From contig OW569356.1 in assembly GCA_937625935.1 (NCBI GenBank), positions 1-64,000 on the forward strand: a stretch of DNA of 64,000 bases. The letters are read 5' to 3'. The notes under the pieces are model-generated. The model worked only from the letters and a program-made list of their open reading frames with translations, did no database searches and was not told the origin of the DNA. The translations under genes were made by a program, and so were the position numbers. Positions 2,252 through 29,800 of this stretch are shown here, piece by piece. Positions within the stretch are counted from its first letter, which is position 1; the number at the start of each line of letters is the position of its first letter. Origin of the DNA: Tetramitus jugosus. Its lineage: Eukaryota; Protista; Heterolobosea.

Positions 2252-2256
2252 TGAGA

Positions 2257-3060: not shown

Positions 3061-3309
3061 TCCTTCTTTATCTTCACCGATGAAGAAGTTGTTACCAACT
3101 TTGGAGATGATAACAAGTGAACTAATTTTATTACCAGTCGTTGGTAACTTCTCTCTATATCATTAGAAACAATAAAAGAAATTGAGTTAGTTTCTGTAGT
3201 TGTAGACATGATGTAGTTGATAACCTTGTGATTTGTTTTGTTTGCGTTTGTTTTTGATCAAAACTCCGAGATTCGAAAGGAAAAACTTTGTTTATTTGTG
3301 CAGCTACTC

Positions 3310-3522: not shown

Positions 3523-3532
3523 CAGATCTTGC

Positions 3533-3855
3533 GGCCCGTAAACGGGCCTAGGTAGAAATGAAATTTTAGAAGGGCCCGTAAACGTGCCTTAGTAAAAATG
3601 ATTTTTGGGCCGCCCGTGAACGGGCCATAGTAATCAACTGTTTGCCCATAAAAAATCAAGTCTCGGTCGCCCGTGAACGGGCTAGAGAAAAGTTGATAAA
3701 TAGGCGGCCCGTAAACGGGCTAGATAGAATAGGTGGCCCGTTCACGTGTCATAGTAAAAGCATTTTTTAGGTGGCCCGTAAACTCTCTCAATAAAAATCG
3801 ACCTTTATTACGGGCCATAGTAAAAAAGCAGTCATATGCGGCCCGTTTACGGGCC
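3533..3855. repeat. Array of ~9 copies of the 16-bp palindrome GGCCCGT-NN-ACGGGCC, typical period ~38-40 bp
   Basis: Copies start at 3533, 3573, 3611, 3668, 3706, 3735, 3773, 3801 (half-site) and 3840, separated by related AT-rich spacers (ATAGTAAAA...TTTTT.GG). Confidence 0.9.
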
Positions 3856-4040
3856 ACCAGATATGCGAAACCCAACTGAAACCCAACGGAAATCACATGT
3901 TTCGTCTATAGTTCCACAACCACAAGTCAAAAAACAACCATAATGTTAAGTTGAACATTTCAAGATATGAGGAATACAAAAACAGGTATTGTAACGCATG
4001 AATACACTCCTTGACGTACTTTTGGTTAGTGTATACGTTA

Positions 4041-4058
4041 AAACCCAAACCCAAACCC
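4041..4058. repeat. Interstitial telomeric remnant (AAACCC)3
   Basis: AAACCCAAACCCAAACCC in the same orientation as the telomere; further partial copies AAACCCAAC at 3868-3876 and 3879-3887, and AACCCAAAC at 4078-4086. Confidence 0.85.
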
Positions 4059-4800
4059 TGACAACACTCGAGGTTGCAACCCAAACGCTTCTAGATCTCC
4101 CTACTGTCAAAGTTGATCGTGTGGCGGTCCATGGAATCCCAGATGATTATCATCCATCAAACCAGGTTGAAGATGGAACAGTAATTGATCAGCAACAACT
4201 CTGGGGAGAAATCTATCTATTTAGCAACAAGTACATTTCAACCAAAATATCTCTTTCAATGGCTTGCACATGTACAATGAAATACATGTATTGTGCGAAA
4301 AACTCGTTGTTGATTCGTTCTGTTGCCTGCATCGCGATGCACCCACTGTTGTTGATCTGTCACCATTACTCTGAAACAAACAGTATCTAAGAGCCCACAA
4401 GTTGCACGACTTAATCGCGCTTCTGGGAAGAATAGAGCTGTATCATCTGTGACGCAGTTTTCATTTCTATCAGAATGGATTGTGAGTTGAGGATGATGAA
4501 GAAATCGAATTTTGTGGTCCCCAGTGATCCACTATGCCACAACCACTTGGGGTGGTTTTTAGAGTTCATAGTGAGCATATAATATTATTCCTGTCATTTG
4601 ATCGGAAGTGTTCCAATTTCTAAGCAAGCTTATAATAATGCATTGAAGCAGCAGTTTTACTACCTACTCATTTGACGCAAGTAATCACATGATTCATATT
4701 GGATTTTTGTTTCACAGGTTTGAAATCAACAGGTGATGATGATGGTGGTGATGATGATTGGGATGATAAATGGGATGAAGAAGCTCCACGATCCACTGGA

Positions 4801-4900
4801 GTACTGACAACGGTTTATCACACCAACATGTGTTCCAATAGTACACTTTTGATGTACATAGGAGGTAGGCAGATGAAGATGGGTCTCATGACAGCTAGAT
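4801..4900 (-). pseudogene. Small duplicated fragment of the NRPS adenylation-domain gene
   Basis: GTACTGACAACGGTTTATCACACCAA..TGTGTTCCAATAGTACACTTTTG matches 16102-16152 almost exactly; similarity continues after a ~17-nt deletion. Confidence 0.85.
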
Positions 4901-8168: not shown

Positions 8169-10004
8169 TCATTCTTCAAGAGAGCATTCTTCAATATGTA
8201 CCTCACCTATACTATCATCTGTCACGATTGTCTCCGCTATCCCAAATCTACTGTCTTCAATATCAAAAACAAAAACAGTGAGATGCAACTTCAAATCAGA
8301 TCTGGATTGCAAGATCAAATGATGATTCGCATAATTCTTCTGCTTCATCTGTGCCAAAGCTTGATTCTTGAACGCTGACAGACCTTTCTTTAATTTGTCC
8401 TGCACAAATTTGTACTCGATAATATGCATTGATCGCTTCAATTTGATGAAAAGATCCAGAGTTCCGTCCAGCGTGGATCCTTCTGCCAAAAAAGTAAGCT
8501 GAGGGAAATGGCGTTTCAAATGAAGCATTGATACGTACAATGCTGCTGCATACACAGCTTCAATCTTGCCAACATTCTTCTCTCCTTGTATTGTCCGGAA
8601 CTTTGGGTGAGGAAAGGACTTGATCAATCTTCCGAGTTGCTCAAATAATTTCTTCATGTTTTCCTCTATCAGTGCTTCTTTCATCTTGATTGTAATATCA
8701 TTGTTATCAACTAACCCCAGTCTTGCTGATAGATCACTAATCAATGTTTCTCGAACAGAATTGTTGGGTACTGTTAGTTTGTTGTCTTTGATCGTCAAGT
8801 ATCCTGTCTCATAAAACAACTTTTGCATTGTTCGTGTTGAGGGTTTGATCAACTCACTCAAGTCGACAGGCTGAGTAAATTTGTTCACCACTCCTTGCGG
8901 TTCAATGATTTCAACAATGGAGTGAACCGTTGGATCAAATAATGTCCATAGGTGCATGCTTCTACCTCTTGCTGCCCAGTAATTTTCGAATTGGTGTTTC
9001 TTCAGAAGTTGATTCAGATCCCAAGGATTCAGAAGCCCTTCTGTTGCATCAGTGCAGAAATTGTAGCCATAATATTCATTGATAATTCTCTCATCCAAGT
9101 TGGCACCATACTTTCGCTCAAGTTCCTCATATGCATTCGGGTATGTATTTCTTACTTCGTCTAATGTATATCCTGTCAGAGCGTGCAAGGATGTATCAGT
9201 TGACATATCGTCAAGATCATTCATCGATGAAAATAGATTGGTATATGAAAACTTGGTCACACCAGTCATAAATAACAAGTGAATCATTGATCCAAGAGCC
9301 TTGAGTGGAGAGAAGAAAGCTCTGAGCACGTCTCTATTCTTCTTTGCAAGTGAAATATTGGCCTGATCTGTCAGATTTTCAGCAATTGCTTTCGTAATTG
9401 GACCGTCATATTCATCAATCAAAATGATTACTTGTCCAGATGGTGAGTGTCTAGCAATGTACAGTATTGTTTCGTGCAACATTCCCTCAACATCATTTCT
9501 GTTTGAAAATGCTGCCTCAATATATGCAGGTATAACCAACTTGTTCTCATAAAAGCTGTGCTTGAGAACACGTATAATACCAGAGACAGGGTCGAAAGTT
9601 GAGCAAAAAGAGAAATCCAAATGTAGTACAGGCATGTCTTTCAACTTTGTGAACAAATCCTCAGAGTTGTAAATCTCAAATTGTTGTTCATTGTTCTCCA
9701 ATGGTCCAAATGCTTCTCTTTTTCCCAAGGCAATAAGTTTCATTTGTTCAACTGTCAAAGATTTTCCCATCTTTCTTGGTCTTGTAAACAAAATCTTCTT
9801 ACCAAATTCTAGTCTCATAATTCTTTCAATCATCTTGGTTTTGTCAACAAACTTGGCACCACGCTCTCGCTCACGAAAAAAGTTTTGGGTTGTTGGAATG
9901 ACCTCGAGAGATTGATTGCGTTGTTGGGTCTTGAGATTGAAAGAACTGCGGTTCATGAAGAGACGATTCGTCCTTGAACAAAAGACACGCGAGGAACACA
10001 GCAT
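8169..10004 (-). CDS. AAA-ATPase-like domain (PF09820 type) plus C-terminal PD-(D/E)XK nuclease (PF08011 type), with a mitochondrial-like presequence
   Basis: FVDKT, RPRKMGKSL (Walker A), ILIDEYD.PI (Walker B), TGVTKFS, YYGYNF, NPW, NYW, LFYETGYLTI, VPNNSVR; nuclease motif E...GTLDL...IIEYK...ALAQM...Y. Confidence 0.9.
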   Translation of the reverse strand: MLCSSRVFCSRTNRLFMNRSSFNLKTQQRNQSLEVIPTTQNFFRERERGAKFVDKTKMIERIMRLEFGKKILFTRPRKMGKSLTVEQMKLIALGKREAFGPLENNEQQFEIYNSEDLFTKLKDMPVLHLDFSFCSTFDPVSGIIRVLKHSFYENKLVIPAYIEAAFSNRNDVEGMLHETILYIARHSPSGQVIILIDEYDGPITKAIAENLTDQANISLAKKNRDVLRAFFSPLKALGSMIHLLFMTGVTKFSYTNLFSSMNDLDDMSTDTSLHALTGYTLDEVRNTYPNAYEELERKYGANLDERIINEYYGYNFCTDATEGLLNPWDLNQLLKKHQFENYWAARGRSMHLWTLFDPTVHSIVEIIEPQGVVNKFTQPVDLSELIKPSTRTMQKLFYETGYLTIKDNKLTVPNNSVRETLISDLSARLGLVDNNDITIKMKEALIEENMKKLFEQLGRLIKSFPHPKFRTIQGEKNVGKIEAVYAAALYVSMLHLKRHFPQLTFLAEGSTLDGTLDLFIKLKRSMHIIEYKFVQDKLKKGLSAFKNQALAQMKQKNYANHHLILQSRSDLKLHLTVFVFDIEDSRFGIAETIVTDDSIGEVHIEECSLEE

Positions 10005-11069
10005 TGGTTTTTGTTGGTGTCTTGGTTTTTTTGTTCACTGTAGACCAACAAATTTTGCAGGTCGGAATAAATCAAGACTGTAGTTCCAAATGTAACGGTC
10101 ACGAGGGAGTTTATGTTCCTATGGAAGAATTCGTCCTCCATGGAGGAGGTCTCTAACTTCTCTAGGCATGAATGATGTGGATAGGCGTACTTTTTGGGAG
10201 GTTCATTTCACTCCCACGAATATGACGAACTCCATGGATCTTTCGGTTGAACCTGTTCTTGTGCTTTGTCATACAGAAAGACAGAGACTTGAAGCTATCA
10301 TTTCAAGAATTAAACCACTCACTGACTTTGGAATTATCAATGAATTGTCATTGGAAGAACTGAAACGTTCTCTGGATCCAGAGAGAGTACTTTCATTTGA
10401 TCACGTTACCAACTCTTTGGATGAGAGGAATTTGAAAGCATCTACTAATTGTATCAGATCGCTTCTGGATCAGAAAACAGACATAAATTCAATGAAGATG
10501 ATTTCTCGAATTGTAACAGATGAGCGAGTCTCAGAAAGAAGTAGAACATTGATAACTTCTGTACTCAGACAGTTCGTCCCACTCTACCAATTAACCCATA
10601 ATGCAGAAATTATCAGTTCATTTTGAGGATTGTGAATGGTTCGGTTCTCATCCATTGAATCAATACTGCAGTGTTTCCATACTCTTGAAGAAAACTTCGA
10701 ACAGAATGTCAAGCAAAGACTTTACTGATTTGATGTGTGATCCAAACCTATTGAATGGACTGGGATTAGATGAATGGATAAAAAAGCAAAACCTGTCCAA
10801 ATGCTTCCTAGTTCCTTCTCATGCAGGATAGAAATCATGCCAGATATGCTATCTATCCAAGTATGAAGAACTTGTTTGTTGTAGCATGTGAAGATCGTTC
10901 AACAATTCATAATCTTGTGACATTCCTGCAAGACACTATTCGGCAAGATACTGGCAACCTCTATCATTTCTGAATGTTCCTTGAGCGCATTGAACATCGA
11001 CACTTCTACAAGGAGGCAAGGATCTGTGTAAATCCAGGAGAAGTGCTCCATAAACAAAACCGAACACAC

Positions 11070-12642
11070 ATGTGGAGCTCTGACAAGAACATAAAATGGT
11101 TGGTTGCCCTCTTGACCCTCTCTGTCTCATCCTATTTCTTTCTGCTCTCAATTTCTCATCTTCCCCCACGGCAAGACACCTCAATAGTCCACAAGGTCGT
11201 AGAACCTGCAAAGGCTCCAAAGGTGGTGAACACAGAAAAACAACAAATTGTGAAAGAACAGCAACAACAACCTTCAAAGTCCACCAAGAATCATACATGA
11301 GAATTCATGTGCTTTTGGTTTGTTGTCATGGAAGTCTCCCAAGGGTTTTTTGAACATTTGGTCTCCAAGTCTACGACAAGCGTCGACAGTAGCTTTGAAA
11401 GAAGCAGTGAATATTACTGTTCTTGTCCAAGAGGCTATGATCAACATGGTTGTGCGAAGAGCAATCAAGAATTGAAGATTCCACAATTTCGAATGGCTCG
11501 TTGCACTTATGGATGGCACAACATTGAATTTAACAAATTAAGAAACGAAACCAACGTAAAACATCTAAAAAAAATGGAGAAACTGTTCAGTAGATTTAGA
11601 TCTCTCAACGATTCATTTACTGTTGACCTATAATCAAAAGCTGTTTTATGATTCGACAGAGCCATTGCTAACTGGAGACATGACTAGAAGTGAATGGTTC
11701 AATGGAAAATCCATAATTCTAGGTAAAGTGCTTTACACGTTCATGTTTAGCAAATGTGGGGCATTGGATGTCATTGAATACATGTTGAATATAATGTACT
11801 CCAAAGATCATTACTTTGTGTTGTTTTTATCAGAGAACATGAACAATTGCCGAAAACAGGTGGAAGATATGGTTGAGAGAATACGACTCGACAATAGTGA
11901 AGCGACCAACATTTGGATCGTTCCTCAACATCTCTCGTTTAAAAGTTACAGAGCGCATATTACACTTGTGTACATGAACATTATTCCTGTCCTTTACAGT
12001 TTTCTCAACGGAATGACAGACTGGAGTCACGAAGTCAATTTATCAGAGGCGCATTTCCCATTGACGTCTACCAATCAATTCTCTCAATTTTTAAGGAATC
12101 GGTCATCAATATTCCAAACATTTGTATCTACTGATTACCCGAAACCCAATGAGAGATACAAGTATGTCACGTACTCGTGTACCTCACTTGATGTTTTGAG
12201 CGAAATGTTTGGTTCTCGAGATATCATAGCCATTGGAGGTTCTCAATGGAAGATTTGGTCCAATGTTCAATGGAGGTTGATGTTGAGTAGTGTCACTGCT
12301 TTGAACACATTGTTCAAATTCAAGTACTCCATTATTCCTGATGAGTTGTACTTTTCAAGCATTACACATACATTTACCACCTTGCACAGCGGTAATTCAT
12401 CAGCACCTGTCCTCATGGTGGACGGAACTCGAACAATCCTGCCTAACTTAGTGAATGTTAAGGATAATTTGACATACCTGAAATGGGTTCATGGAAGAGG
12501 TAGTCCGCTGCCAATCCCGGACCAATACCGAGAGGAAGTTATAAAGTTTGCGCAATCTGGAACGAAATTCTTTGCTAGAAAGATGATGAATGTCCTCATG
12601 GCCAAGAACATCACACGAACACTTGGGTTTTCCAAAGATTAA
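11070..12642 (+). pseudogene. Core-2/I-branching (GT14, xylosyltransferase-like) glycosyltransferase, disrupted
   Basis: Type II membrane anchor after ATG 11070; NLSEAHFPL, GGSQW, IPDELYF, NLTYLKW and FFARKM motifs. In-frame TGA at 11298-11300 and a frame change near 11625; unrecognised introns are not excluded. Confidence 0.7.
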
Positions 12643-12877: not shown

Positions 12878-13308
12878 TCAGAGCTGGGAGATGTCTTCCT
12901 CAGTTGTCGTCAAATCAAGCTGAGCAAGGACGACACCCCCAGGTAATCCTTTGAACGGTCTACCTCCTTTTGAATCAATGAATGGATCATATTTAACTAG
13001 AGGTCCAAATTTGTAACCGTTCTGTTCGCAAAGGATACGTGTGAAGAGTGTGGAGCACTCCGCGATGGCCTTTTGGAATCCTGCTTTTTTTCCCAGAACG
13101 ATACTTAATTTCTCTAAAATAACGCCCACGCCATACTTTGATACTTCTGGATCAATTGCAGTGAAAGATTGATACATAACAATGCCAGGCTGTTCGATCC
13201 GCTGATAACCCTCCATCGCCTTGTCCAACACTTCAAACACTGGAGCGTGTCTTTCAATCCAAGTAGGATCAATTGGATTCCCTGGAGAAGCTAACTTGTT
13301 CATGTTGT
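12878..13308 (-). CDS. 3' part of the Ebony-like NRPS (C-terminal half of the AANAT/GNAT-fold domain), separated by the insertion
   Basis: TAIDPEVSKYGVGVIL...GKKAGFQKAIAECSTLFTRILCEQNGY matches the AANAT-like GNAT C-half; joins in frame to 14541 when the insertion is removed. Confidence 0.8.
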
Positions 13309-14539
13309 CACGGGACGGTTTTTTGGTTTTAAAACCGAAAAATAGGTCGACGAATTCCCGTCAAACTCCATTTCCCAAGCCTATGAGGCGAGCTGGACCA
13401 AGGCGAACCCAGATTATAGCAATAACAGTACATTAAAGTCCTATATAAGCAGCTGGAACTGGTATTGTCAAGCCTATAGCTCTTTTCCTACATTTTCAAA
13501 AACCACAATGTCACAAATTTGTTGTGTGAAAAATGGCGACGGAGTAAACAGCAAGCCAGCAAAGCGAGAGCGAGAGATGACATTTCGAATGATAAGTTTA
13601 ATGATGCTAGGTTGTGGCTTGTCTATGTTGTACTGCCATCTATGGTCTCTTGCATAGTAAGCTTTGCTTCTTCCTTCAGATCAAATCGCCTAACACCTTG
13701 CAACATATAGTGAACCTGGATCACTGATATTCCCTTACTTATTGTACAGGAATAAATTCGCACTGATCTGATATTCTTCTAGTCACTTGACAGTCGACGA
13801 GTACAGGAACAACTGGTGCCGTTTTGCCCTTTAGCATGCTAGCAACAGCTCTCTTTTCCTCAGCAGATCCAATCACATACTGATCAATTTCCTTTCCATC
13901 GCGGTCTCTTGTCTCATATTTCATTTGAACGTACATTGACTTGTCCTTCTGGTTATACATCAGGATGACTGGATATGTCAAACAGCATTTCATACCAGTT
14001 CTCGCAATAGATCTTGTTGCTTCATCTCCAAATACATCCTTAAACTTCTTCAGAGACATGATGGCACGGATAGAGTTCTGAACAATGTTTCTAGGGTTCT
14101 GTTTTCCAAACGAATACTCCAATGTACCTCCTACAAATGTATTGTACTCGGATCGTTCCAGACAATTAACAGTGCTAAACCGTTTGAACTCTCTGATTGG
14201 CTTCTTTGCAGTCATACGCTTTCTAATTGACTGCAACACAGTATTCTGAATCATTTCCCTCCTCGATTTGCTCAGTCTTCCTTCACGGGCATCATCATTG
14301 CTGTCTGCACGCCTCCTCCCTCCTTCAGATACTGGACCACTTCTGTATTCACGTCTTCTGAAATCTACTGTCAACTCATAGTCAGCCAAATAAGCTGGTG
14401 CTTGTCTCACACGTGATGGCATGCTTGTTTGTTGTTAAATGTTGACTAACGGTAACGCCGTTGGCCATTCATTGTCATCTCTTTTTTTGTGTTACAATGC
14501 ACAGGATTGTCGGTTTTGAACCCAAAAAACCTTGCCGTG
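13309..14539. mobile_element. Non-autonomous DNA transposon with ~30-bp imperfect TIRs (5'-CACGG...CCGTG-3')
   Basis: Left end CACGGGACGGTTTTTTGGTTTTAAAACCGA vs reverse-complemented right end CACGGCAAGGTTTTTTGGGTTCAAAACCGA (26/30). Removal of 13309-14540 restores the NRPS frame. Confidence 0.85.
13739..14422 (-). CDS. Basic 227-aa orphan protein carried inside the TIR element
   Basis: Intact ATG-to-TAA ORF; no DDE transposase motif recognised. Confidence 0.6.
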   Translation of the reverse strand: MPSRVRQAPAYLADYELTVDFRRREYRSGPVSEGGRRRADSNDDAREGRLSKSRREMIQNTVLQSIRKRMTAKKPIREFKRFSTVNCLERSEYNTFVGGTLEYSFGKQNPRNIVQNSIRAIMSLKKFKDVFGDEATRSIARTGMKCCLTYPVILMYNQKDKSMYVQMKYETRDRDGKEIDQYVIGSAEEKRAVASMLKGKTAPVVPVLVDCQVTRRISDQCEFIPVQ

Positions 14540-14540
14540 T

Positions 14541-16623
14541 AATTATCAATCGCAAGAGAACAACCTACTACTTTACCATTCAATTTTGCAATTATCGATA
14601 AGTTGTGGTTGGGAACCTCCATGAAGAAAGGAGTGAAGAAATATAGTGTCTCTGCAGCTGATAGTCTCAAGAAATTTGCAAGTGGTTCCTCAGTTTCATA
14701 AATTGTTGCAGCAAATAGAGAAACTTCATCCATATCATTCTCATCATAATAGTCGAATGAGATACCTGAATGGAGATCAACTACAGGAAATTGATTTGGC
14801 CAAGTGTGTATATCTGAAGGAATATGGAGCCTATCTTGTTGCGGGCTTTCAATACCTGTATGATATGAATCTGCATGATCTCCAGCTTCAGCAAAATGCA
14901 CCACTTTTGTTGCAAGATCTCGAAGAGTAAAAGAGAGAATGAAATCGCGATGAGAAACAATGATGCCCTTATCCTTTTTCAACTTCATCTTAATCAAGGA
15001 GATGTTCAACGAACTTATGCCAAGAGAATCAATTTCGTCATCAGGTCCCACCTGAATACCCAATATTTGATTGATAGTCTCACACAAATCTGACTCAACT
15101 TCATTCGAATAGTCACTATTGACGGTGATGATTGGTTTATCGAGTTGAGATCGATCAATTTTTCCATTGCAATTCAGAGGTAGCTGATCTAGCACCACAT
15201 ACTTACTGGGAATCATGTAATCCATCAATTTATCTTTCAGAAAGAGTGGAATATCCTGTATTTCGAATTGAGTTTGGCTCAGAGTGAGATATGCAACCAA
15301 AAAGCCAAAAGAATCTGATTCCTTCCAAAACTTTGTGACACACTTCGTCACACCAGGGCACTTTTCGATCAAGATTTCAACTTCTTCTAAGTCAACGAGC
15401 ATTCCTCGAATCTTTACTTGGTTATCAATCCTCCCTAGATACACCAAATCACCGTTTTTGAGTCTCTTACCAAAATCACCCATCTTGTACATCCGAGAAA
15501 AGGTCGAACATGTATCATATTGACACTCTACAAATCTTTCAGATGTTAACAACTCATTGTTGAGATATCCTTTTGCCAGTCCAACACCACTAACAACAAT
15601 CTCTCCCTGATCTGCCAGTTGTTGGAATTCGTCAACAAGATAAACTTTCATACCGTTAATTGGTTGACCAATTGGAATCACTCCTCGATGTACATCACTC
15701 ATTGTAACTCTATGAAATGTAAGATCAGAAGATACTTCACTTGACCCATAGACGTTGAGGAGTGTAACACTGGCTGATAAAGATAGATATTTTCTACTTA
15801 CTTCCACTGATAGAGTCTCTCCACTCGATTCCCAATGATTAAGATGAGGTAAAACTCTTGGTAGATCATACATGTTAAAGAGTGTATCTAACACAGAAGG
15901 AACAGTTGCCAGTCGAGTAACCTTTGATTCTGAGAGAGCTTCCACAAGGACATGAATATCAGTTCTCCAGGAATCATTCACTAGGCGCAGAGGAACACCT
16001 TTTAACAATGGTTGAAATATCTCTGCGATAAAATCTGTAAAGCTCACGACTGTCTTGGAGCAACATACATCATTATCATTGTAGGGGTATGAGTCCCACA
16101 TGTACTGACAACGGTTTATCACACCAATGTGTGTTCCAATAGTACACTTTTGCTTGCCGCTGCTACCTGATGTAAATATGAGGTAGGCAGATGATGATGT
16201 ATCTATTGACAGCCCCAGATTCTGCTCTTCACACTCGCTAAACATGTCCCAATGCGAAAGGATTAAGTGTTCTGTCATATTGTCCATAATTGTCCGAGAA
16301 ATAATCAGAGAAGGATTGGAAACCTGGACAATGTTATTGAATCTTTCTGATGAAGTGGAGGGATCGACAGCCAGAAAAACGTGTCCTGTTTTCAGCACTG
16401 CCAACAATGCAGCTACGAAATCTATACTTCGTTCAATCGTCACCACAATGACTGAACTGCCAGGAAAGTGCATAGACTGGATGTAGTGAGCAAGACGATT
16501 TGCCTTGCGATTTAATTGTTCATAGGTAATGGTAGAGAGGTCACAATCCACCAAACATTCGAAATGTGGATGTAAGGATGCTTGTTCTTCGAATAGGCCG
16601 TGCAGAGTGAGGATTTGTTTCAT
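14541..16623 (-). CDS. Ebony-like single-module NRPS: adenylation + thiolation + N-half of AANAT/GNAT domain (5' part)
   Basis: TYEQLNRKANRLA, FTSGSSGKQK, KTVVSFTDFIAEIFQPL, SSGETL, NVYGSSE, PIGQP, YKMGD, GRIDNQVKIRG, NGKIDR; PCP motif LGISSL; then YETEEPL...LSIIAKLNGKVVGCSLAID. Confidence 0.9.
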
Positions 16624-16750
16624 TTGTCTTCTTTGTGTTTGGTCTTGTTGCTGCCCAAGACTACCTTCGTATCTGGAAATTGCAAATTGAGTATCTTCCG
16701 CAAGCCCAAGTTCAGATTTTTAGGGTTCTCCGAGGAGTTTGCATTCCAAT
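16624..16750. promoter_or_regulatory. 127-bp divergent (bidirectional) promoter region between NRPS and b5-YqcI/YcgG genes
   Basis: Head-to-head ATGs at 16623 (-) and 16751 (+). Confidence 0.6.
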
Positions 16751-17965
16751 ATGGAAAAATCAAAACTTCTCCTGAAGAAGGAAAAGGCAGGTCAATTCAA
16801 AGACCTGTGGACCACAACTGTGCGAAGAACAAAAATGATATTCCTTGCCATATGGTCCAGCGTCCTCAAGTTCATCGCAACTTTGTTGGGACAGATTTCA
16901 TTTGGGCAAAAAAATTCATCCATGACCATGGAAGATATCGAGTCAGAATGTAAGAAAGGAAGATTGCTAGTTGTTATTGGAGGAAAGGTTCTCGATCTTA
17001 CCCACTTTAAGTATCACTCTGGTGGTTTCGACACCCTGGAGCAATTTAAAGGCACGGATTGCTCTCTTGTTTTCAACCGGGTTCACAAGATGACACACAA
17101 TATTTCCAAGTTTGTTGTGAGTCAAGTTGTTCCCAAGCCAGAACAACCACAGACAATGAAACAAGAAATAATGGAGGATTCAGATATTCTCAGATCTGAA
17201 ACAAGTACAGAATCTACTCGATGCGTAGTGTACAATGACACCGAGAAACAATTTGGTTCACTTGATTCAACTCACTTTGATACAACCCAACAGCCTGATA
17301 TCATGAGAGAACTCGCATTGTTCACCAAATTTATCCGATCTGACCAATATCCGTGTGTAGCAGGCCGAATAGCGTTTGTAAAGAAATCCTTCTGCTTTGG
17401 TCTCTATTCCAGAATGGGAGATCATCAATCGGCATTTAACGTGTGGACTGATCTTGTTCGGTTCATTCGATATCAGAACGCTCAATGGAGAAATGGCAAC
17501 ATATTTACTACTTTCGTTGCGATATTCCAGGGAACTGAAGTTAATGATGAAGATGAATTTCACGATTTACTCTGGAAACATCTGCAGATCATGCATAATA
17601 TCGATCATGAGAAGAAGAGTACTTGGCCATCTCATATTCCTCAGAACGTACTTGATCCACACTTTTCTTTTGTCATTGCAGGACGTCCATTCTTCCTCGT
17701 AGGTCTACATCCTAATAGTTCCCGGAAAGGAAGAACTTATCATGAGCATGCGATCGTTTTCAACTCCAAGTATCAATTTGATAAACTGAGGGAGTATGGA
17801 ATAATGCAGGATATTTTTGCTATCACAAGAGGAAGAGACCTGAAGTTCAATGGATCGATAAACCCCAATTTGATACCCTTAGATGATTACTCGGCAGCGC
17901 TCCAATACAGTGGAAAGGAACTGACAACCACTTCGAAACTGAACTTTGAAACAAACACGAAATAA
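16751..17965 (+). CDS. Cytochrome b5 domain fused to a YqcI/YcgG-family (GntA/DcsA-like) heme guanidine N-hydroxylase
   Basis: b5: VVIGGKVLDLTHFKYHSGG...GTDCSLVFNRVH. YqcI/YcgG: YPCVAG, FSFVIAGRPFFLVGLHPNSSRKGR, VFNSKYQFDKLR, RGRD...GSINPNL, AALQYSG. Confidence 0.88.
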   Translation: MEKSKLLLKKEKAGQFKDLWTTTVRRTKMIFLAIWSSVLKFIATLLGQISFGQKNSSMTMEDIESECKKGRLLVVIGGKVLDLTHFKYHSGGFDTLEQFKGTDCSLVFNRVHKMTHNISKFVVSQVVPKPEQPQTMKQEIMEDSDILRSETSTESTRCVVYNDTEKQFGSLDSTHFDTTQQPDIMRELALFTKFIRSDQYPCVAGRIAFVKKSFCFGLYSRMGDHQSAFNVWTDLVRFIRYQNAQWRNGNIFTTFVAIFQGTEVNDEDEFHDLLWKHLQIMHNIDHEKKSTWPSHIPQNVLDPHFSFVIAGRPFFLVGLHPNSSRKGRTYHEHAIVFNSKYQFDKLREYGIMQDIFAITRGRDLKFNGSINPNLIPLDDYSAALQYSGKELTTTSKLNFETNTK

Positions 17966-18013
17966 AAACATCAGATCTTGTAAAATCATTAGGCTGCTTT
18001 TTATCAGTAAATA

Positions 18014-19555
18014 TTAGGCATTTATTACATAGGTTTCCTTCTCTTCTTGCTCGACCCTCGCAAGAGCGACCTTTGCTTCTTTTCTGAAATTAATTCGCAT
18101 CAGGTACATAATTTGTAATACCGTCATAATGACCAATCCTGACGCAATTCCCAACCAAATACCGCGCAATTTGAGCTTGTAGCCAAAAGCAAAGAGAAGT
18201 CCAACGGGAATACCAACGATATAGAACGCGATAAGGTTGGCTATCGCTCCAATATATTGCAATCCCATTCCTCTGAGAACACCTCCTAATGTTGTCTGTA
18301 TTCCATCAAATACTTGATACATAGACACGATTGGAAGTACCGCAGCCGTTATTCTGATAACTGTTTTGTCTTTAGTAAATATTTTACCAACATACTCCCT
18401 CAACAAAAAGAGACATAGTCCATTGACCACAGTGTAAGCAATTGCAAAACTTGCGCATATGTAAACAGCTACCTTTGCTCGGTGTGGTTCATTTAGTCCC
18501 AATTTGGTACCAACACGAACACAAGCAGCAATTCCTATTGAGAATGGAAACATAAATGTAACGAGCATGATAGTCATAATGATGGAATGGCTGGCCAAAA
18601 ACTTGTCACCCAAAAAACCAACAAACAACGCTGTAACTTCAAATCCCCAAATCTGTAAGCACTCCTGAAAGGAACCAGGAACAGCCAGTTTAAGAATTTC
18701 GTACATATCACGCAATCTGATTGTTTCTCGTACATCACTCAGTATTGATCTAGTTGGGACACCTTCCTCTCCTGTTTCGTTTTCTTTTTTTCTCCACTCT
18801 AACCGAATAGTATAGCTCGACAAACTGATGCAAATGATTATTTTTGTCAAAGACGTTGCTAACCCGCTTCCAATAAATCCTAACGCTTGGTACTTAATAC
18901 CTCTCACCAAAAGAATATTTAAGATGATATTGATGATATTTGCCAGCAGTCCATTCAGCATGGGAAATATCACTACACTTTGTGACACTAAATACCGATT
19001 CGCTATGGAAGAGATACAAAATGGATAGAGTCCAATAGCATTCCAGCGAACAAACTTACCGGCCAAGTGAGCAATATGTGGATCCTGACCCAGCAGAATC
19101 AGAATTTGTTCACTGAACAGAAGCAACAATAATATAGGAAAGGCAGTCAATAACACAATAATAGATGATCGATAAAGCACTAACTTTTTCAATCGCTCAT
19201 TGCCCGCTCCCTCAGCCTGACTCACTAATGTTTCCATTGCCGATAACAATCCAACTGGAAAATATTGGAGGCAAATTGTGTAGGCATTGCCCAGGGATGC
19301 AGCAGAGAGATAATCACCTCCTAAATGTCCCACAAACCAGACATCCACCATGCCCAAAGTTGACTCACAAATGGATGTTATCACTAGAGGCCAGAACAGA
19401 CAAAATAACTCCCATAGTTCAGACCGACCATACAACCTGAACAAAGTCAAAAGACTTGGCGGTTTTTGTTTTAATCTTTGTTTGTTCGCCGGCAGCAAGG
19501 AAGAACGCTCTTCTATTCCCGCTTCTGATTCTTCGATTATGTGCTTGGTTGTCAT
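18014..19555 (-). CDS. MATE family efflux transporter
   Basis: About 12 TM segments; VDVWFVGHLG..LSAASLG, METLVSQAEGA, RVGTKLG, FDGIQTTLGGVLRGMG, GIWLG. Confidence 0.96.
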   Translation of the reverse strand: MTTKHIIEESEAGIEERSSLLPANKQRLKQKPPSLLTLFRLYGRSELWELFCLFWPLVITSICESTLGMVDVWFVGHLGGDYLSAASLGNAYTICLQYFPVGLLSAMETLVSQAEGAGNERLKKLVLYRSSIIVLLTAFPILLLLLFSEQILILLGQDPHIAHLAGKFVRWNAIGLYPFCISSIANRYLVSQSVVIFPMLNGLLANIINIILNILLVRGIKYQALGFIGSGLATSLTKIIICISLSSYTIRLEWRKKENETGEEGVPTRSILSDVRETIRLRDMYEILKLAVPGSFQECLQIWGFEVTALFVGFLGDKFLASHSIIMTIMLVTFMFPFSIGIAACVRVGTKLGLNEPHRAKVAVYICASFAIAYTVVNGLCLFLLREYVGKIFTKDKTVIRITAAVLPIVSMYQVFDGIQTTLGGVLRGMGLQYIGAIANLIAFYIVGIPVGLLFAFGYKLKLRGIWLGIASGLVIMTVLQIMYLMRINFRKEAKVALARVEQEEKETYVINA

Positions 19556-19815
19556 ATCTTTGTTGTGGTTCAGAATTCACCCCAGTGGCTGGAGAAGATT
19601 TATTCTGAATGAGCAGCAAAACAACATTCAGAACTCCGGATCTCCTGCTGCAAGATTTTCTCTCCGAGTGCATTTTGTATCCGCACCAAAAATTGAACAT
19701 TCAACAAACATTTTTTCTCCGTCAAGACTCTGCCCGAACTCGCGCGCAAGAAATTGTCAAAAAATAGCTGAAGCATCAAGCAAAAAATCACCGTCACAAA
19801 AAACTACTTAAAGAC

Positions 19816-21873
19816 ATGGATCGCTTACAGTTACTCAAACAGCTCTTTGAAGATGGGTTCATTGGACACGAAGAATTTATCACCAGAAAAACTCAACTGA
19901 TTGATGACTTGACTTTTACTCGTTCCTCTCCTCTCAACAACAACATCAACAGTCATCATGCTGCAACAAACCTAAAAGATGTGAACATCACCACCACGAT
20001 TAACCCTCGATCAACACATGACGCCGATGACCTTCCCTTATCCCCCAAAACACCTGATTTATTGTTCGAGTCATTTTTTCCCGATTCCCCGATAACTACC
20101 TCCTGTGCGGCATCTACGGTTGATCCGTTCCCGCCTCTTCTCTCTCCATCGTCACCCTTTTTTACTGATCTTTTGTGTGCTCCTACGAGTACATGTGCAA
20201 CTACGACAAACACAACAACAGCATCACTAGGTTCATCCACTACTGTTGTTGAGGGTGATAACGATGACTGTGCTGCTTTTTTATTGTACGATGATATTTT
20301 GACATCGGATTGTCAACATCGGACTCAAACGACTGTTGCTTGCCATGACAATGATCATGGTGTGACTGTTGCTGAAAAAACAAGAGACGTTGAAAAGTCA
20401 AAAGACTCTACTGCCAGTAGTACAACTACCACTACCATTGACTCTGCACTCTCTCATGATGACCTCCTTGCTCTATCTCCATCATTGTCACCAATCTCTT
20501 CATCACAAGTCACACCGGGAACTCTGTTTGAAATGTCTGTCGAACAAAAGAAACAAATGATTGAAAAATTGAAGCAGTTAAGTCGTGTTTCTCAAGTCAA
20601 AATTTTGCAATTTTTGCAAATGAAATCACCCTCTCAATTACAAAAGAATGACTCATTGGACGAGTATACATGTGATTTGGGATGTGTTGACAATCAGACA
20701 TGTTTGACCTTGTATCATATGATTACAGAGTTGGAAATGTTGGAGCTCTATCAATCCAATGTACAATACTATCAACAGCAACAGCAACAACAGCAACAAC
20801 AGTACTTTCCATTTTATTCTGCATTTGCAACAATGAATCCCTCCATGGACTTGGCCTCCTCCTATTCCAACAACCTACAACCATGGTACAATCAGAGTCA
20901 ATACTCGAGCAGTATGCCCAACATGATGATGATGAATACTCTCGAAACTCCTCAACCAGAGAACAATAATCAGAGTAAAAAGAAGAGACGGAGAAACGTA
21001 CATGACAAGGATGACGATGATGATGAACAAGAAACTGTAAACAAGAAGCAAAGAATGAATACGAACGGTGATCAACAGAGTGAACAACTACCAAAGAAGA
21101 AGCATGCTTCAGATGAGTGGCCATTGATTGATAGCTGCTCTCATGACCATCAACCAGTTTCTCACTTGGATGCAAGTGATGTGTGCTCATTTATGCTTCC
21201 CACTACAACAATGAACTGTGAACAAGCACTTTGGAAGCCCAGCAAGACTTCTCCATCACAGCAGTTGACCTCAGACACCACCACCCTGTACACAAACCCT
21301 TCATGCAGTGATACAGTTGACTGTGGGTCCTCATTGCATCCACCTGAGAACAATCAAGAAGATCCAGCCAAGAAGAAATTCACCATCACGCTTGAAATTC
21401 ACACCTTTGACAAGGCTGATGACACCAACAAGCCTTACCATTGTGATACATGTGGAAAGCGATTCAAGGATCGATCCAACTTGGCCAAACACATTAGAGT
21501 TCACACCAAGGAAAAGCCATTCACATGTGACATCTGTGGCAACAGTTATGCACATTCTCAAACTTTAAGGGAACACATGTTTGTTCATCGAAAGGATGAA
21601 CATGACAACACTGTCGCAGCCAAGCCGTTCCAATGTACATTCAAATCATGCAACAAGACATTTGCAAATGAAGCAAACCTACGAAGACATATGAGGACAC
21701 ACACCAAGGAACAACCATACGAGTGTCACTTGTGTGAGAGATCCTTTTCACAGAGCGGTAATCTGAAGACACATCTGAAACTGGTGCATCAACTCATTGT
21801 GGACAAAATCACAAAGAAGGAACAAAAGCACAAGCGGATGCTCAGGCTTACCAAGAGCTTGGATATGGAATAA
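19816..21873 (+). CDS. C2H2 zinc-finger transcription factor with N-terminal SHOCT-like and central ET-like domains
   Basis: Four CxxC..H..H fingers with HTKEKP-type linkers; N-terminal RLQLLKQLFEDGFIGHEEF; EMSVEQKKQM...DEYTCDLGCVDNQTCLTL resembles the BET extra-terminal domain. Confidence 0.88.
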   Translation: MDRLQLLKQLFEDGFIGHEEFITRKTQLIDDLTFTRSSPLNNNINSHHAATNLKDVNITTTINPRSTHDADDLPLSPKTPDLLFESFFPDSPITTSCAASTVDPFPPLLSPSSPFFTDLLCAPTSTCATTTNTTTASLGSSTTVVEGDNDDCAAFLLYDDILTSDCQHRTQTTVACHDNDHGVTVAEKTRDVEKSKDSTASSTTTTTIDSALSHDDLLALSPSLSPISSSQVTPGTLFEMSVEQKKQMIEKLKQLSRVSQVKILQFLQMKSPSQLQKNDSLDEYTCDLGCVDNQTCLTLYHMITELEMLELYQSNVQYYQQQQQQQQQQYFPFYSAFATMNPSMDLASSYSNNLQPWYNQSQYSSSMPNMMMMNTLETPQPENNNQSKKKRRRNVHDKDDDDDEQETVNKKQRMNTNGDQQSEQLPKKKHASDEWPLIDSCSHDHQPVSHLDASDVCSFMLPTTTMNCEQALWKPSKTSPSQQLTSDTTTLYTNPSCSDTVDCGSSLHPPENNQEDPAKKKFTITLEIHTFDKADDTNKPYHCDTCGKRFKDRSNLAKHIRVHTKEKPFTCDICGNSYAHSQTLREHMFVHRKDEHDNTVAAKPFQCTFKSCNKTFANEANLRRHMRTHTKEQPYECHLCERSFSQSGNLKTHLKLVHQLIVDKITKKEQKHKRMLRLTKSLDME

Positions 21874-23899: not shown

Positions 23900-26800
23900 A
23901 TGAGTTATCGAAAGCATATCCAGCACGCAGAGGATTGTGAATATTTTTGTACCTGGTTGTCGTACCATGGATATAGGAACAAAAAGGCTGTGGATGAGAA
24001 TTGGAACGCAAAGGAATTAGAGACGGGCAGAGTTCTCGCTCGAGTTGTCAAAAAATTTGACACGCACAATTTCCATGTCTCTGAAAATTTAGCAAAGGTG
24101 AGTTGACCTATCATAAATTAACTTACATGCAATGCTTATTGATGTCTAACACAATTGAAACGAAAACAGAAAGCCAACTTTGAAGAGTTTTCCAAGTTGT
24201 GTAAGAAACACAAGTTAACTGTTCTGTGGGATCCAAAGAAAGCCTATTATGGTGATAAGGTTGAAATAGATCTGGTATGTAGTTGTTTTGTTCATGTGGT
24301 GTAGGTGGATAGCATGCTGACACATTATGATATAGGTTCTCCAAAATCTCATCGAGTTGTGCCTGTCAACAAAACTAAAAGAAAGCGAGGAAAATTCAGG
24401 TCTTTTGTCGAGAGTGAAGGCAGGAATTGGAAGCGGATTTCGGAAGTTGACTTCTACGGTCAGTACGATATTGGAGTCTGGGGATGAATGGAGTGATATG
24501 ATTGAGCACTTGCAACAATGCCAACAAGGAAGAGCTTTGGATCTGCACATAATTAACAGGGGTATCAAATGTGTGGACGGGAGATTAGATTATTTATTCG
24601 ATGGAACCAAAGGACCATCATCCACTGCTGGAAGGTATTGTTTGGAGCTATGGCAAAGTATCGAAAATATGCCAAGAGGACCACTCATTTGTTACCTCTT
24701 GTTGAAGGCTCAAGTGTATTTAGGTTGTTCAAATAGAAGAGAGGAGTATGATAGTACTTTTTTGACGCTTTTGCAGTGGCTTTGCCACAATCCACGATTG
24801 ATTGCCGAGATTCCATTCACTGATGTCTTTCAGCAGCTTCAAAAGTTAAGAGCGAAGCTGACACCTGAAACAGACTTTATTGTGACAATTATATGCATGA
24901 CGCATGAAACACTAACCACCAACACCAACACGAAAGCCAAAGAGATGTGGTATAATTTTCAATTAGGACGAAGGAGGGTTGACTATCGATTGGTATTCAC
25001 TGAAGTTCCATCTTTTGCAAGGATGCATATTGATATATTTGCTCCAAATATGTTCCCTAAACTGCAAGTCCTTCCTGATCAAGTTCCTGATTTATTTTAT
25101 CAGTTGTCAGCTTTCAGAGAGATTTTATCAGGAGTTAATCTTGAGAACCTTGCAGAGAGACTCGCGACTGACCACATGACAGAAGATAACTTCTCATCAA
25201 GTATTGCTCCCATTTCAGCTCTTTGTGCTCAAAATTATAGTCTAATGGAAAAGTGTGCAAAAAAGATGTTCGAACAGCATTATGCGAAAAAATCGTTTGT
25301 CGAGAGTGTATTTTCAACTTTTTCTGGGTTAGATAGCTCGTTGTGCAGGTCAATAATGGATTGCTATGTTTCTGCATTCAAGGACAACATCCGAAAGATG
25401 AGAGTTGATCAGTTTATGTTTGGATATACATTGTTGCCTGAGAGAAATGTATTGTTGGTGCAAGATTTTATTCAACACACTATTTTGACTTCAAACGAAT
25501 TGAAAGGCGTTGTTGAGAGCTACTTGTGTGTGGATGATTCAATAAGTTCTCCGGACAGAATGAAATCCATTTTGACAACTCTGATCTCAAAAAGCAAAGA
25601 CTACACGGACTCATTTTTGTTCATTCCATTGCATTGCACAGAATATTCCAAGATGTTTGAACCATTCGAGAATATTCTATTAGAGATTAACAACCATTTG
25701 AGGGAATTCTTTAAGCAACATCAAAATGGGTTCAATCAAATGTTTACCAAAATTTGTAGTATCAAGCGAGAAGAGAAAGAGTTTGGGAGATTGTTTTATC
25801 TATTGATCAATAGTTTCTTGGGTGTTTATTTTGAAACACAAATGACTGGAGGATCCTCTCTGCATAATCTCATGAATATCATGGGTATTCTCGAAAAGGT
25901 TCAGAGCAGAAGTTCAGTTCATCTCATCGTGTTCAATTCTGCGCTGATGGCCTGTTCCAAGCACATTAGGAACTTAAGATCTGAACCGTACGTGTATATT
26001 CGAACAGGAAAAGGTATTGCTCCATTCATTTCGACATGGAAGAACACTAAGAGCAACGACAAATCACTGATAGCCCAACAGTACAACAATGCGTTCGAGC
26101 AGTACATAAGGAGTATCTATGCAGAGCTTATTGAAGAGGTAACAATGGATGGTGAGTTACTACAAATTGAGGAGCTATTACAGTTGAGAAAAAATTTACC
26201 ACAAGTAGTAGAGCTCTGCAATGCGATTGGCATTAATTCACGATTCGATGGCCAAGTTAAAGATCTACACAATGAACTACAAGTGGCAGAGCGAACTCAT
26301 AAAGGATTAAGCACCCTACTCAATTGGTTGAGGGAGCATAAGTTTGGAACACTAAGAGAGATTGCTAATTCACCCTTGAAACCAATTGAAAACACAAAAA
26401 CGAGCTTAGGTGACTTAAGAGAAATGATACAAGAGACAGAGCAGAGACTAGCAGCTATTTCTGAAACAAAAGATGATTTACTGTACTTCATTGAGAGAGA
26501 GAGTTTATTGTTCCAAGCAGTTCTGAGGACCAAGTTGTCTAACCGAGAAACAAGTTTGAGAACACTCAATAGTTGTATCAGAGAAACTGTTTCGTTCATA
26601 TCTGCATTGTTTGATAACGATCAAATGACAATCAAAAGTTTGGAGGATGTAAATATTGACAGAGTTATCAGAAACATTAGACAGGCTAAAAGAACATTAG
26701 AGAGCGAGTTGTCTATTATCAAAGAGCGCTTCAGCAAAGGTTCTGTTAAGGTGTTTAACATTGATAAATTTGCTGCAGCTTTGAAGTTAAAAGAGTTGAG

Positions 26801-29800
26801 TACACAACTCACCGCACTTCTCGATGCGCTCACACAGTACAATATGGACTGTCACAAAACGGAGCAGGTGAAATTGATAAAAGAGAAATATGATCGATTA
26901 CAAACCCTTCAGGATACCAAGTTGGGAGACGTGCCAACAATTTTAGAAGAATTTGAAAAATTGCTCTGTGGTATGCACAGTTTCCATATGAAGTATTTTG
27001 AGCAATTATGTCAATCTGATTGCAAGCAACTTGTTGAGTTCCTGAAGAATCAAACGGATTTTGCAAAACAGATGGATATTTTGAGAGGGAAAGCCGGCAA
27101 AGACAAGTTCCAAGAAAATGTGTTGAATGCCCTCCTTGTAGCAAAAACTTATTTAGAACCGTTCCTTAACAAAGACACTTCATTAGCAAGTATTGCTGAA
27201 AAGGTGAACAGTCTTGGAAATGAAGAGGAGATTGACTTTAAACTTGAAGCCATTAAGACATGTGCTTCCAATTTAAGTCACATCAAGCTTTGGCTCTCTA
27301 GATCATCACGTATCTCTATTGAAGATACTTATCAAACCATTGAGCAACTGCAAAAGCTTGGGAAGTGGCGTTCTGCTCTCAACAACTACAAAGATGGCGC
27401 TTTCCTTACTATAGAGTACACACTTCAGGAGAACACTCAAATACTAGCGGAGGATGAGTTGAACGATCTTGTAAGAACCGCCATCTTCCACTCTACAGAT
27501 GTGAAAGGTCAAGAACTCGTCAAGTCAAAAATTACATTCCACAACTTCATTGAGTCTAACAAGTATGCATCCAAAGCCCACTTTCTGCGGTTGGCGTTAG
27601 AATCAGCCGGTCATCCTGACTATCAAGGAACCTTTGAATATCTGGGTGAAAAATTGGACAGCACAACTGTTAAACAGGTTCATGATTCATTGTCTAAGGA
27701 ACTTGACGAATGGGAAAGTTGCATTCAACAGCAATACCAGCAAGAAAGAGCAATCTTGAAGCTTTCCAGAACTCAGTATATTCGATTTCTTGGTTTGGTG
27801 AGAGAAGTTTGCGCTGATGTGACCAATGCTAATAAGGAGATTTTGACCCCATTTTTCAATGCATTGTTTCCAAAAGAGAATATTGATTTATCCAACGAGT
27901 TGGTGGTCGAATTATTCGACGAATTGAAAAGGAATAACGCTCAGAGACTCGACTTTAGTGAGGCTGTCGCTCTCATCCAGTTAGTTCGACAAAGGTTAGG
28001 CATTCAGGAGGGTGAAGATGACAGTGAAGAGAACCATCCTACTATTGTGCTCAAAGCTGAACAACTTGCTCCAGTTGATTTGTTGTGTCACACGCTGGAA
28101 AGAATAGAGATGATCGATAATGATTACACTTCGAATCGTTTTGTCGAGCCTGGACAATTATTATGGTGTTCCGAGACTACATCCATCCAGGAGCTAAGAT
28201 GGTTTGACGAGCGAAGAAAAGCATTCGCTGATGTGAACTATGTAATAATTGGTGTTGACAAGTTGTCCTCTTCTGTTCGAGAAGAACTCATCAAGCTGGA
28301 AGCTGACAAATCAAGAAGTGGCAAAACTCATCTTATATTCAACTCTGTGACCGGTTTGGATGCCTTTTCGTTCCTGGATCAAGAGATTTTGGATTCGTTC
28401 CAACAGAACCAACAGTATCGCACGTGGTTGATGGATAATCTCTCCCAATACGCGAACATAAAGAAGATCTCATGTGTGAATGGGGATGATGCATCAGGAA
28501 AGTCGACTTGGATCCGAAAGAGGATTGTGAGTGAGGGAGGTGACTATGTTCGTATTGTGGCAGCTGAAGACTTTTCAACAAAAGTGTTTTTGAATCGTCT
28601 CAAGTCTGCCCAACAAGGTTCAAAGTTAGGTGTACATCTTGACATATCACAATTTGTTGACCTAGATCAGCTAAATGCGTTCTTCTTCAACATTTTCCTC
28701 CAGGGATTGCTGATTGATTCCGCAACAGGAAGTACAGAACTCCTTCCACAATGTGAAATATCTGTTTACTGTGAATTACCGAATCACAATATCAAAGAGT
28801 TCATCCCTCTACTCTCATTATTGGTACCAAGTTCTACTACTATCAAAAACGTTCCATTTGATGTGACTGAAGAGGATCATGAAGCTAAATTGGTGGCTAC
28901 TTTTATTGCTATCAACGATAACAATCATTGGGAAGTTTATGATGACCTCTCTGGATTGGATGTTCTTCCAGCTGAAGATTGTCAACGAATTATTCGATCA
29001 TTCTTTGAGAATAACGCAATTATTGCTCCTACCATGGTTCACAGAACACTATTTGTTCGTCTAATGTATAGCAGATGCAAATTTTTGATGGAACGAACAC
29101 TCATCCGGCAAGAATTACAGCAAGAATATTATGAACCTATTGATCCATATGAAAACGGTGCAATGTTTGGTGTGTTCTTGTTGGAGTGTCAATATATGGC
29201 AAATGACAAGATTAAGCAGGATTGGAGTCAATTGCCTGTCGCGTTTTCAGCTCGCTCTCTAGAGCATTGTGATTTCTTGTACATGGGTGAATCAGATCCA
29301 ATTGCATACATTCCAGAGAATTCAATTAAACGAGACAGCCTCGCACAGGTTCGAGCTGCCTTGACTTCTGCCCTGGGTCTAGGAGGAAGTTTAATAGCCA
29401 TCATGGAGAAGTTTGGATATTGCTTAACTGTTGATTTTGCTGTCAAGCTTCTCTTGTTGAATGAAAGAAAGAGTGCAAAACTACCGGTGATTCTTCAGGG
29501 GAGTACAGGCACAGGCAAGGTATGTTTTCATTTGTTTCCAACTGTTTTTTACTCTGCTCTTTTCGAGTTCTTTGTGTTCACTCGCGTTATTGGCCCTAAA
29601 AGACTGAATTGTTGAGACTGTATGCCGAGATTCAGAACCAAAAAGCAAAATTGAAACCTGATATTGTCTTTGAAGTTCATTTGAGATGGTTTTTGCAGCA
29701 ATATGTGGCCGGTACAGAATCATTCCAACTCTACAAGAATTGTTATGACAAATATGTGCAAGAGAATGGTGTCAGATCGAACAAAACTCTCGACGAACAA

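Follow-up and report, generated by a model that had tools for sequence, protein, structure and literature searches.

Gene content and layout of the locus

The stretch of DNA analysed here, referred to as the window, comprises the first 64,000 nucleotides of contig OW569356.1 of the heterolobosean amoeba Tetramitus jugosus (assembly GCA_937625935.1). At positions 12878–21873 it contains genes for a nonribosomal peptide synthetase (NRPS), a haem protein fused to cytochrome b5 and predicted to N-hydroxylate guanidines, a multidrug and toxin extrusion (MATE) transporter and a C2H2 zinc-finger protein, which an earlier note on this DNA had proposed to be a biosynthetic gene cluster. The NRPS gene lies on the minus strand in two pieces. 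Its 5' part (14540–16623, 694 codons) spans an adenylation (A) domain, a thiolation (T) domain and the first half of a terminal domain of the arylalkylamine N-acetyltransferase (AANAT)/GNAT type, as judged from Pfam and from alignments to the PDB, and its 3' part (12878–13308, also minus), recognised by its Atlas match, holds the second half of that domain and is open to the stop codon. The two pieces are separated by an inserted element at 13309–14539.

When gaps were measured from the first ATG or the stop codon among the long open reading frames (ORFs) of the window, the arrangement described in the earlier note was reproduced. The NRPS ATG (16623) and the hydroxylase gene (16751–17965, plus strand) are head-to-head across 127 bp, the MATE gene (19555–18014, minus strand) ends 48 bp from the hydroxylase stop at 17965, and the C2H2 gene (19816–21873, plus strand) is divergent from the MATE gene across 260 bp. 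The 127-bp gap (16624–16750) may hold a promoter shared by the two enzyme genes; if the hydroxylase started at Met29 instead, at the onset of its hydrophobic segment, this gap would measure 211 bp.

The synthetase

The A domain (residues 11–488) matches the Pfam AMP-binding profile with an E value of 1e-50, and the T domain (residues 512–572) scores 20.7 bits with the PP-binding profile against a cut-off of 20.8, with Ser538, within an LGxxSL motif, as the candidate phosphopantetheine attachment site. No condensation, thioesterase or reductase domain was found in the NRPS by the Pfam search. With respect to the terminal domain, the 5' part carries an EEPL sequence (E646-P-L) at the place of the DEPLN motif of insect AANATs, whose Glu is described as the catalytic base (PMC6070697), and the 3' part falls with clusters of GNAT and dopamine N-acetyltransferases in the Atlas (0.96–0.97, recognition 2931). 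Neither AANAT half gave a Pfam match; single-sequence folds of the two halves reached pLDDT (predicted local distance difference test) values of 33 and 40, and the fold search gave no informative match. The domain matches, the Atlas neighbours and the EEPL motif together confirmed the architecture attributed to the protein, that is, A-T followed by an AANAT-type end.

The search for NRPS homologues, in which 7996 word-sharing candidates were scored, yielded 39 proteins at E ≤ 1e-60. Those that carry a name are mostly bacterial condensation-adenylation-thiolation (C-A-T) modules, among them a Microcoleus module near the top of the list at about 35% identity, and cyanobacteria supply most of the nearest A domains. 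No Ebony protein is present among the 39, an absence that the word pre-filter makes weak. In comparison with solved NRPS structures, the Asp that binds the alpha-amino group has moved one place on, to position 236, and the ten pocket residues read TDAAESVSDK, including small Ala residues at 239 and 278 and a Glu at 299. The shifted Asp is common to the 14 best-scoring homologues, most of which read VDWVISLADK, presumably the code for beta-alanine; a literature search for this code found no paper. The pocket of the window NRPS is identical to VDWVISLADK at 4 of 10 positions and is roomier, with an extra Glu, and because of this a larger or basic beta-type amino acid would be as likely a substrate as beta-alanine.

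Ebony, the N-beta-alanyldopamine synthase of Drosophila, and the schistosome NRPS that groups with it resemble the window NRPS in having one module without a condensation domain, in which A and T domains precede a terminal amine-acceptor domain, and in their beta-type amino-acid pocket. The end domain of Ebony has the AANAT fold. Ebony activates beta-alanine, tethers it on phosphopantetheine and joins it to dopamine or histamine (PMC6070697; PMC10531068). The window NRPS differs in belonging to a protist, in its own pocket with Glu299, in the affinity of its A domain to C-A-T modules, in its position beside a hydroxylase and an exporter, and in being split by an insertion. The term "Ebony-like" used in the earlier note is thus supported at the level of architecture only, given the homologues recovered and a pocket that differs from theirs.

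It could also be considered that the terminal domain works as an ordinary acyl-CoA N-acetyltransferase and caps the amino acid on its tether, a variant that would fit the locus whether or not its genes form a cluster. Its Atlas neighbours are stand-alone AANATs and a G-x-G loop, which resembles the CoA-binding motif, is kept in the 3' piece. However, since the NRPS has no thioesterase, reductase or condensation domain for release, the AANAT/GNAT domain would be the only exit for the product, and the acetyl-capping enzyme is considered very unlikely.

No homologue of the 3' piece was found among 169 candidates, in plasmids or in 401 genomes belonging to a single bacterial phylum, and the NRPS had no match among viral contigs. 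Exact look-ups found no uninterrupted NRPS, and likewise nothing for the MATE, the zinc-finger protein or the ORF of the element. The plasmid match to the NRPS with the best E value, among the 25 matches listed, adjoins siderophore transport genes, and no AANAT or YqcI gene is annotated there.

The inserted element

The element, 1231 bp long, splits the AANAT domain and leaves the NRPS reading frame not intact: a 725-codon frame extends 31 codons into the element, and the 3' piece stands apart. A repeat search showed 33-bp imperfect terminal inverted repeats (CACGG...CCGTG), 85% complementary, with 5 mismatches between the arms over 33 bases; their pattern had 2 matches for 0.06 expected. The CAC...GTG termini are a hallmark of Chapaev/CMC transposons (PMC4079192), and the element is likely to be a non-autonomous DNA transposon of CMC/Chapaev-like type. 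In contrast to these transposons, it shows no clean 3–4-bp target-site duplication (the flanks have one base in common, with identity at 2 of 4 positions when four bases are compared), and no DDE transposase could be recognised in it. It contains a 227-aa ORF on the minus strand (13739–14422) whose family was not recognised in Pfam (no match at E < 0.01), in the Atlas (no usable match), in phage tblastn or in viral-contig searches; a single weak PHROG of unknown function was retrieved at E 0.005. No second copy of the element is present within the window, and its repeat pattern had no match among viral contigs.

Both NRPS halves are free of stops. In neutral-decay simulations at 2%, 4% and 7.6%, the frames stayed open in 9.7%, 0.65% and 0 of 2000, respectively, and from this it follows that the NRPS was functional until recently. 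The same comparison implies either that the insertion is recent and its repeats were imperfect from the beginning, or that the gene is rescued. As the element splits the last domain, the allele found here is probably inactive.

Rescue would mean that the synthetase still works, by cryptic splicing, by somatic excision or because the element sits on one allele only, an explanation that is compatible both with a cluster and with unrelated neighbours. If the 5 of 33 differences between the arms reflected age (about 7.6% per arm), none of the 2000 simulations would have kept the halves open as they are. Nine nt into the element there is a GT in an AAG|GT context like that of a likely host donor near 29520. 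However, imperfect repeats from the outset combined with a recent insertion fit the same data. Of the 44 GT/GC-AG pairs that would restore the frame, none coincides with the junctions at both ends, and a clean intron or an introner was discarded as the nature of the element; the pair that uses the donor at +9 would cost about 16 domain residues, and this donor lacks a G at +5. A working synthetase is therefore regarded as improbable.

A 110-bp fragment at 4786–4895 is 77% identical to positions 16102–16213 of the NRPS and includes a 49-bp near-identical block; a 17-bp deletion takes out its ATP-binding loop. It may be a partial NRPS duplicate or a captured piece, located nearer the telomere.

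A predicted guanidine hydroxylase fused to cytochrome b5

The hydroxylase gene encodes a 404-aa protein composed of a hydrophobic segment (residues 29–47), a cytochrome b5 domain with His89 and His112, and a haem domain of the GntA type. It scores 193.9 bits with the NCBIfam profile NF041366 (cut-off 145) and 142.8 bits with YqcI_YcgG (PF08892), and together with the Cyt-b5 match these values uphold its assignment as a GntA-type YqcI protein with a fused b5. A 26-row profile matches AglA at E 2e-12. Cys202 is invariant in 26 of the 26 rows of the alignment and corresponds to AglA Cys44; Phe152, Arg166 and Phe182 of AglA are also kept, as Phe315, Arg328 and Phe343. In AglA these residues are the haem Cys, one haem Arg and two pocket Phe (PMC12866846). 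AglA Gln177 and Arg179 are replaced by Asn and Lys, in an alignment that covers AglA up to residue 184. At the family level, the protein is predicted to be a haem guanidine N-hydroxylase, and by alignment the catalytic residues are intact in both the hydroxylase and the NRPS. A 99% identical protein (P0001) exists in another assembly.

PMC12866846 counts only six characterised YqcI/YcgG guanidine N-hydroxylases, all bacterial. The window protein resembles these enzymes (AglA, GntA, ChmN, DcsA, AmbT and Mhr24) in its score above the GntA cut-off and, as compared with AglA, in its haem Cys, and differs from them in being eukaryotic and in having a membrane segment and a fused cytochrome b5. In the assays of PMC12866846 and of the chalkophomycin preprint, activity was measured with separate redox partners or with an engineered reductase fusion; the amoebal gene provides naturally the kind of redox-partner fusion that had to be engineered in PMC12866846.

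Relatives were examined among the best 150 of 607 representatives, and the 32 longer ones were scanned for fused domains, revealing six b5 fusions, three DUF1989 fusions, one fusion to an ATP-grasp amide ligase (P0140) and one to a ferredoxin. The only b5-YqcI fusion with an organism name comes from the fungus Mycena amicta, and the subfamily is patchy. A tree of the YqcI domain only puts the window protein together with the b5 fusions on a branch of ten rows that is weakly supported (SH-aLRT, the Shimodaira–Hasegawa-like approximate likelihood-ratio test, of 80) and includes one row without a b5 match; this was a quick search of 152 rows that omitted the near-copy P0001 and rows with fewer than 150 aligned residues, including the b5-only P0193. 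Neither the hydroxylase nor its alignment had a match among viral contigs. A literature search for YqcI together with cytochrome b5, at the level of listings and abstract openings, found no paper, and the supplements of PMC12866846 on family distribution may bear on this point. The b5-YqcI fusions likely represent a eukaryotic branch of this haem family, and this subfamily is the firmest new element of the locus.

Besides b5 and DUF1989, the domains found joined to GntA-type YqcI include ATP-grasp (P0140), 2Fe-2S ferredoxin (P0192), B3/4 (P0060), a cyclase (P0155) and LuxR (P0200). The natural fusions to redox and ligase domains may hint at substrates.

The transporter and the zinc-finger protein

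The 513-aa product of the MATE gene is of the eukaryotic type, and the MATE assignment of the earlier note holds: in addition to Pfam MatE and NCBIfam matches, its best PDB matches are Multidrug and toxin extrusion protein 1 (E 1e-55) and DETOXIFICATION proteins, which come before bacterial NorM. The C2H2 protein (685 aa) is generic, with four zf-C2H2 stretches and weak SHOCT and BET matches in Pfam. The earlier note had included it in the cluster; nothing was found that ties it to the other genes. It is probably a bystander, and a role as cluster member or regulator appears rather improbable.

Evidence for and against a gene cluster

According to the domain searches, a core enzyme, a tailoring enzyme and an exporter, all three of secondary-metabolism type, are encoded side by side. 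A rough estimate, taking about 16,000 genes and 5–10 NRPS-like genes per genome, gives about 1 in 1000 for the hydroxylase lying next to an NRPS by chance. The gap between the two enzyme genes is the shortest of seven head-to-head gaps, AglA hydroxylates an arginine amide but not free arginine (PMC12866846), and an insect AANAT accepts agmatine (PMC6070697). The fusion of P0140 to an amide ligase, the YqcI genes of graminine clusters, the amoebal stlB-chlA pair, the intact catalytic residues of both enzymes and the stop-free NRPS halves also count in favour of a cluster. The domains and catalytic residues, the side-by-side position of the genes and the insertion are observed; from these it is proposed that the NRPS, the hydroxylase and the MATE transporter constitute a small ligase-hydroxylase-exporter cluster of a heterolobosean amoeba. 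Because three rare genes of secondary metabolism stand in a row and their chemistry is compatible, this proposal can be taken as an about even bet, that is, a good lead that is still unproven.

Several observations weigh against it. The seven head-to-head gaps of the window measure 127, 163, 260, 353, 452, 631 and 858 bp, and the first is the shortest without being an outlier. The other tail-to-tail gaps are 32, 38, 66, 235, 289 and 504 bp, three of the six being 66 bp or less, so that the 48 bp between hydroxylase and MATE are ordinary in a gene-dense window where tail-to-tail gaps of 32–66 bp are normal. Of the arguments offered in the earlier note for a cluster, the family assignments and the compatible chemistry hold, and the argument from short gaps is weak for this reason. 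The link to agmatine is also poor on the side of the synthetase: the insect polyamine/agmatine N-acetyltransferase is the best PDB match of the 3' half at E 0.09, which is not significant.

The surroundings of the bacterial relatives point in the same direction. Counts were made on the 80 best of 400 confirmed YqcI loci, with NRPS genes sought within 8 kb and many loci ended by contig ends. In 77 of the 80, YqcI is followed on its own strand by a DUF1989 gene, and DUF1989 is also present in three of five short actinobacterial YqcI loci; it is absent from the window. Linkage in relatives, to which the earlier note had looked for a check, is not kept in these bacteria: an NRPS module was found in 1 of 80 loci, a MATE gene in 1 of 80 and the AANAT halves in none, and b5 is likewise found in 0 of 80. 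Since the bacterial relatives couple with DUF1989 and not with NRPS or MATE genes, the three-gene arrangement appears not to be inherited from the bacteria sampled. A metagenome scan with 173 pattern hits led to one locus, L001 (2087 bp, on a probably eukaryotic contig), which is the single fused relative with DNA on its flanks; about 800 bp downstream and about 190 bp upstream of the gene contain neither a MATE nor an NRPS match.

The position of the locus has to be considered as well. Roughly 790 bases of (CCAAAC)n open the window. A candidate telomere repeat, TTTGGG, has been described for the heterolobosean Naegleria gruberi (PMC3622300); this places the four genes 12–21 kb from a chromosome end and, as a single feature, agrees with a heterolobosean host. 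Subtelomeres of bdelloid rotifers accumulate foreign genes (PMC11258130), and the region is dynamic, with the insertion, the NRPS fragment at 4786–4895 and repeats at 3523–3865.

Most of these points fit an alternative explanation in which an Ebony-type amine conjugator that acts alone, a b5-YqcI enzyme of general role and an ordinary MATE became neighbours by chance in a gene-dense, rearranging subtelomere. The b5-YqcI enzyme might then serve, for example, in a stress-related or catabolic oxidation of guanidino compounds, derived from the bacterial YqcI-DUF1989 module, and the occurrence of b5-YqcI fusions in other lineages, Mycena amicta included, on the one weak branch mentioned above agrees with such a role. 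However, chance has to bring three rare gene types into a row and to place the tightest head-to-head gap between the two enzymes, and the surroundings of the other fusions are known from a single contig of 2 kb. Chance neighbourhood is thus a serious competitor of the cluster, to which somewhat less than an even chance is given.

The cluster genes resemble host genes in GC content, in GC content at third codon positions and in codon use (codon adaptation index 0.72–0.76 versus 0.71–0.79), and a recent horizontal transfer of the genes as one block is not supported.

In 22 of the 80 bacterial loci (L010, L033, L041 and related flavobacteria), a conserved gene of 206 aa is found some 630 bp downstream from the centre of YqcI, in a position that seems to be between YqcI and DUF1989.

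Comparison with known systems

The bacterial clusters for argolaphos and for chalkophomycin/graminine, like the window, combine an enzyme that forms amides with a neighbouring guanidine N-hydroxylase; in that for argolaphos, the enzyme is a ligase. YqcI genes are common in graminine gene clusters (chalkophomycin preprint). Unlike these clusters, the window lacks both a partner of the SznF or arginase type and a condensation domain, and its genes are eukaryotic and single, with no operon. The bacterial YqcI-DUF1989 pair, which is uncharacterised, contains the closest bacterial relatives of the window hydroxylase and is distinguished from it by the fused b5 of the latter and by the lack of DUF1989 in the window. 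Among amoebae, the stlB-chlA pair of Dictyostelium (DIF-1 biosynthesis) is an experimentally shown case of a core biosynthetic gene that is head-to-head with that of a tailoring enzyme. Unlike the window locus, it comprises a polyketide synthase and a halogenase, and it belongs to another eukaryotic supergroup.

Proposed pathway

If the genes do form a cluster, its reactions can be envisaged as follows. The A domain would adenylate a beta- or omega-amino acid, which may be basic, and load it onto Ser538. In the AANAT domain, Glu646 would help a primary amine, of which agmatine is one candidate, to attack the thioester in the manner of Ebony. The membrane-anchored b5 would deliver electrons to the Cys202-ligated haem, taking the place of the ferredoxin or reductase partner required by the bacterial enzymes, and once ligation is complete the haem domain would N-hydroxylate the guanidine, much as AglA acts on an acyl-arginine. 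Finally, the MATE transporter would export the cationic product, a small N-hydroxyguanidine amide. That this product is derived from agmatine is a guess and rather unlikely.

A wider interpretation is that the amoeba built its own fungal-style cluster from a bacterial-type A domain for a beta-amino acid fused to a eukaryotic AANAT, a membrane-anchored b5-hydroxylase with a built-in electron donor, and a MATE; this is held only tentatively, as a rather doubtful option. The same joint degree of doubt applies to what it entails, namely an Ebony look-alike of independent origin, an undescribed N-hydroxyguanidine amide and a natural transposon knockout. Were it true, the product could be a signal, a metal binder or a defence compound that releases nitric oxide.

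Clusters that combine a ligase with YqcI are already known in bacteria, and A-T-AANAT ligases are known in animals. The literature search, at the level of listings and abstract openings and with most subscription papers outside its reach, found no protist A-T-AANAT protein and no cluster of such composition, and at the level of listings no characterised heterolobosean biosynthetic cluster. A real cluster would give the hydroxylase a testable substrate, extend Ebony-type chemistry to protists and provide a naturally interrupted allele for comparative metabolomics.

Other features of the window

About 82% of the window is coding, introns are few, the genetic code is standard and adjacent genes are often on opposite strands. 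Near the telomere, two long frames on the minus strand (800–3159) enter the telomere repeat and have no significant Pfam match and no named PHROG match. At 3523–3865, an array of about six repeats is built on the palindrome GGCCCGT(A/G)AACGGGCC and framed by 26-bp inverted arms; it looks like a transposon end or a subtelomeric element, and short internal telomere-like repeats follow it near 4030–4050.

Closer to the locus, a gene at 8169–10034 (minus strand) encodes a bacterial-type protein with an AAA-ATPase-like part and a PD-(D/E)XK nuclease. It is followed by a gene for a Core-2/I-branching (GT14) glycosyltransferase (10974–12642, plus strand), tail-to-tail with the NRPS, whose 5' region is split over three short frames by introns or breaks. 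This glycosyltransferase was considered as a cluster member and dropped, as no link to the other genes was found. On the other side, a very large gene, spread over two frames, occupies 24336–38098; it has no Pfam match and may be RNF213-like. An inverted partial duplicate of this gene stands at the window end (60613–64000) with 91% identity over 1680 bp, and an intron is likely near 29520.

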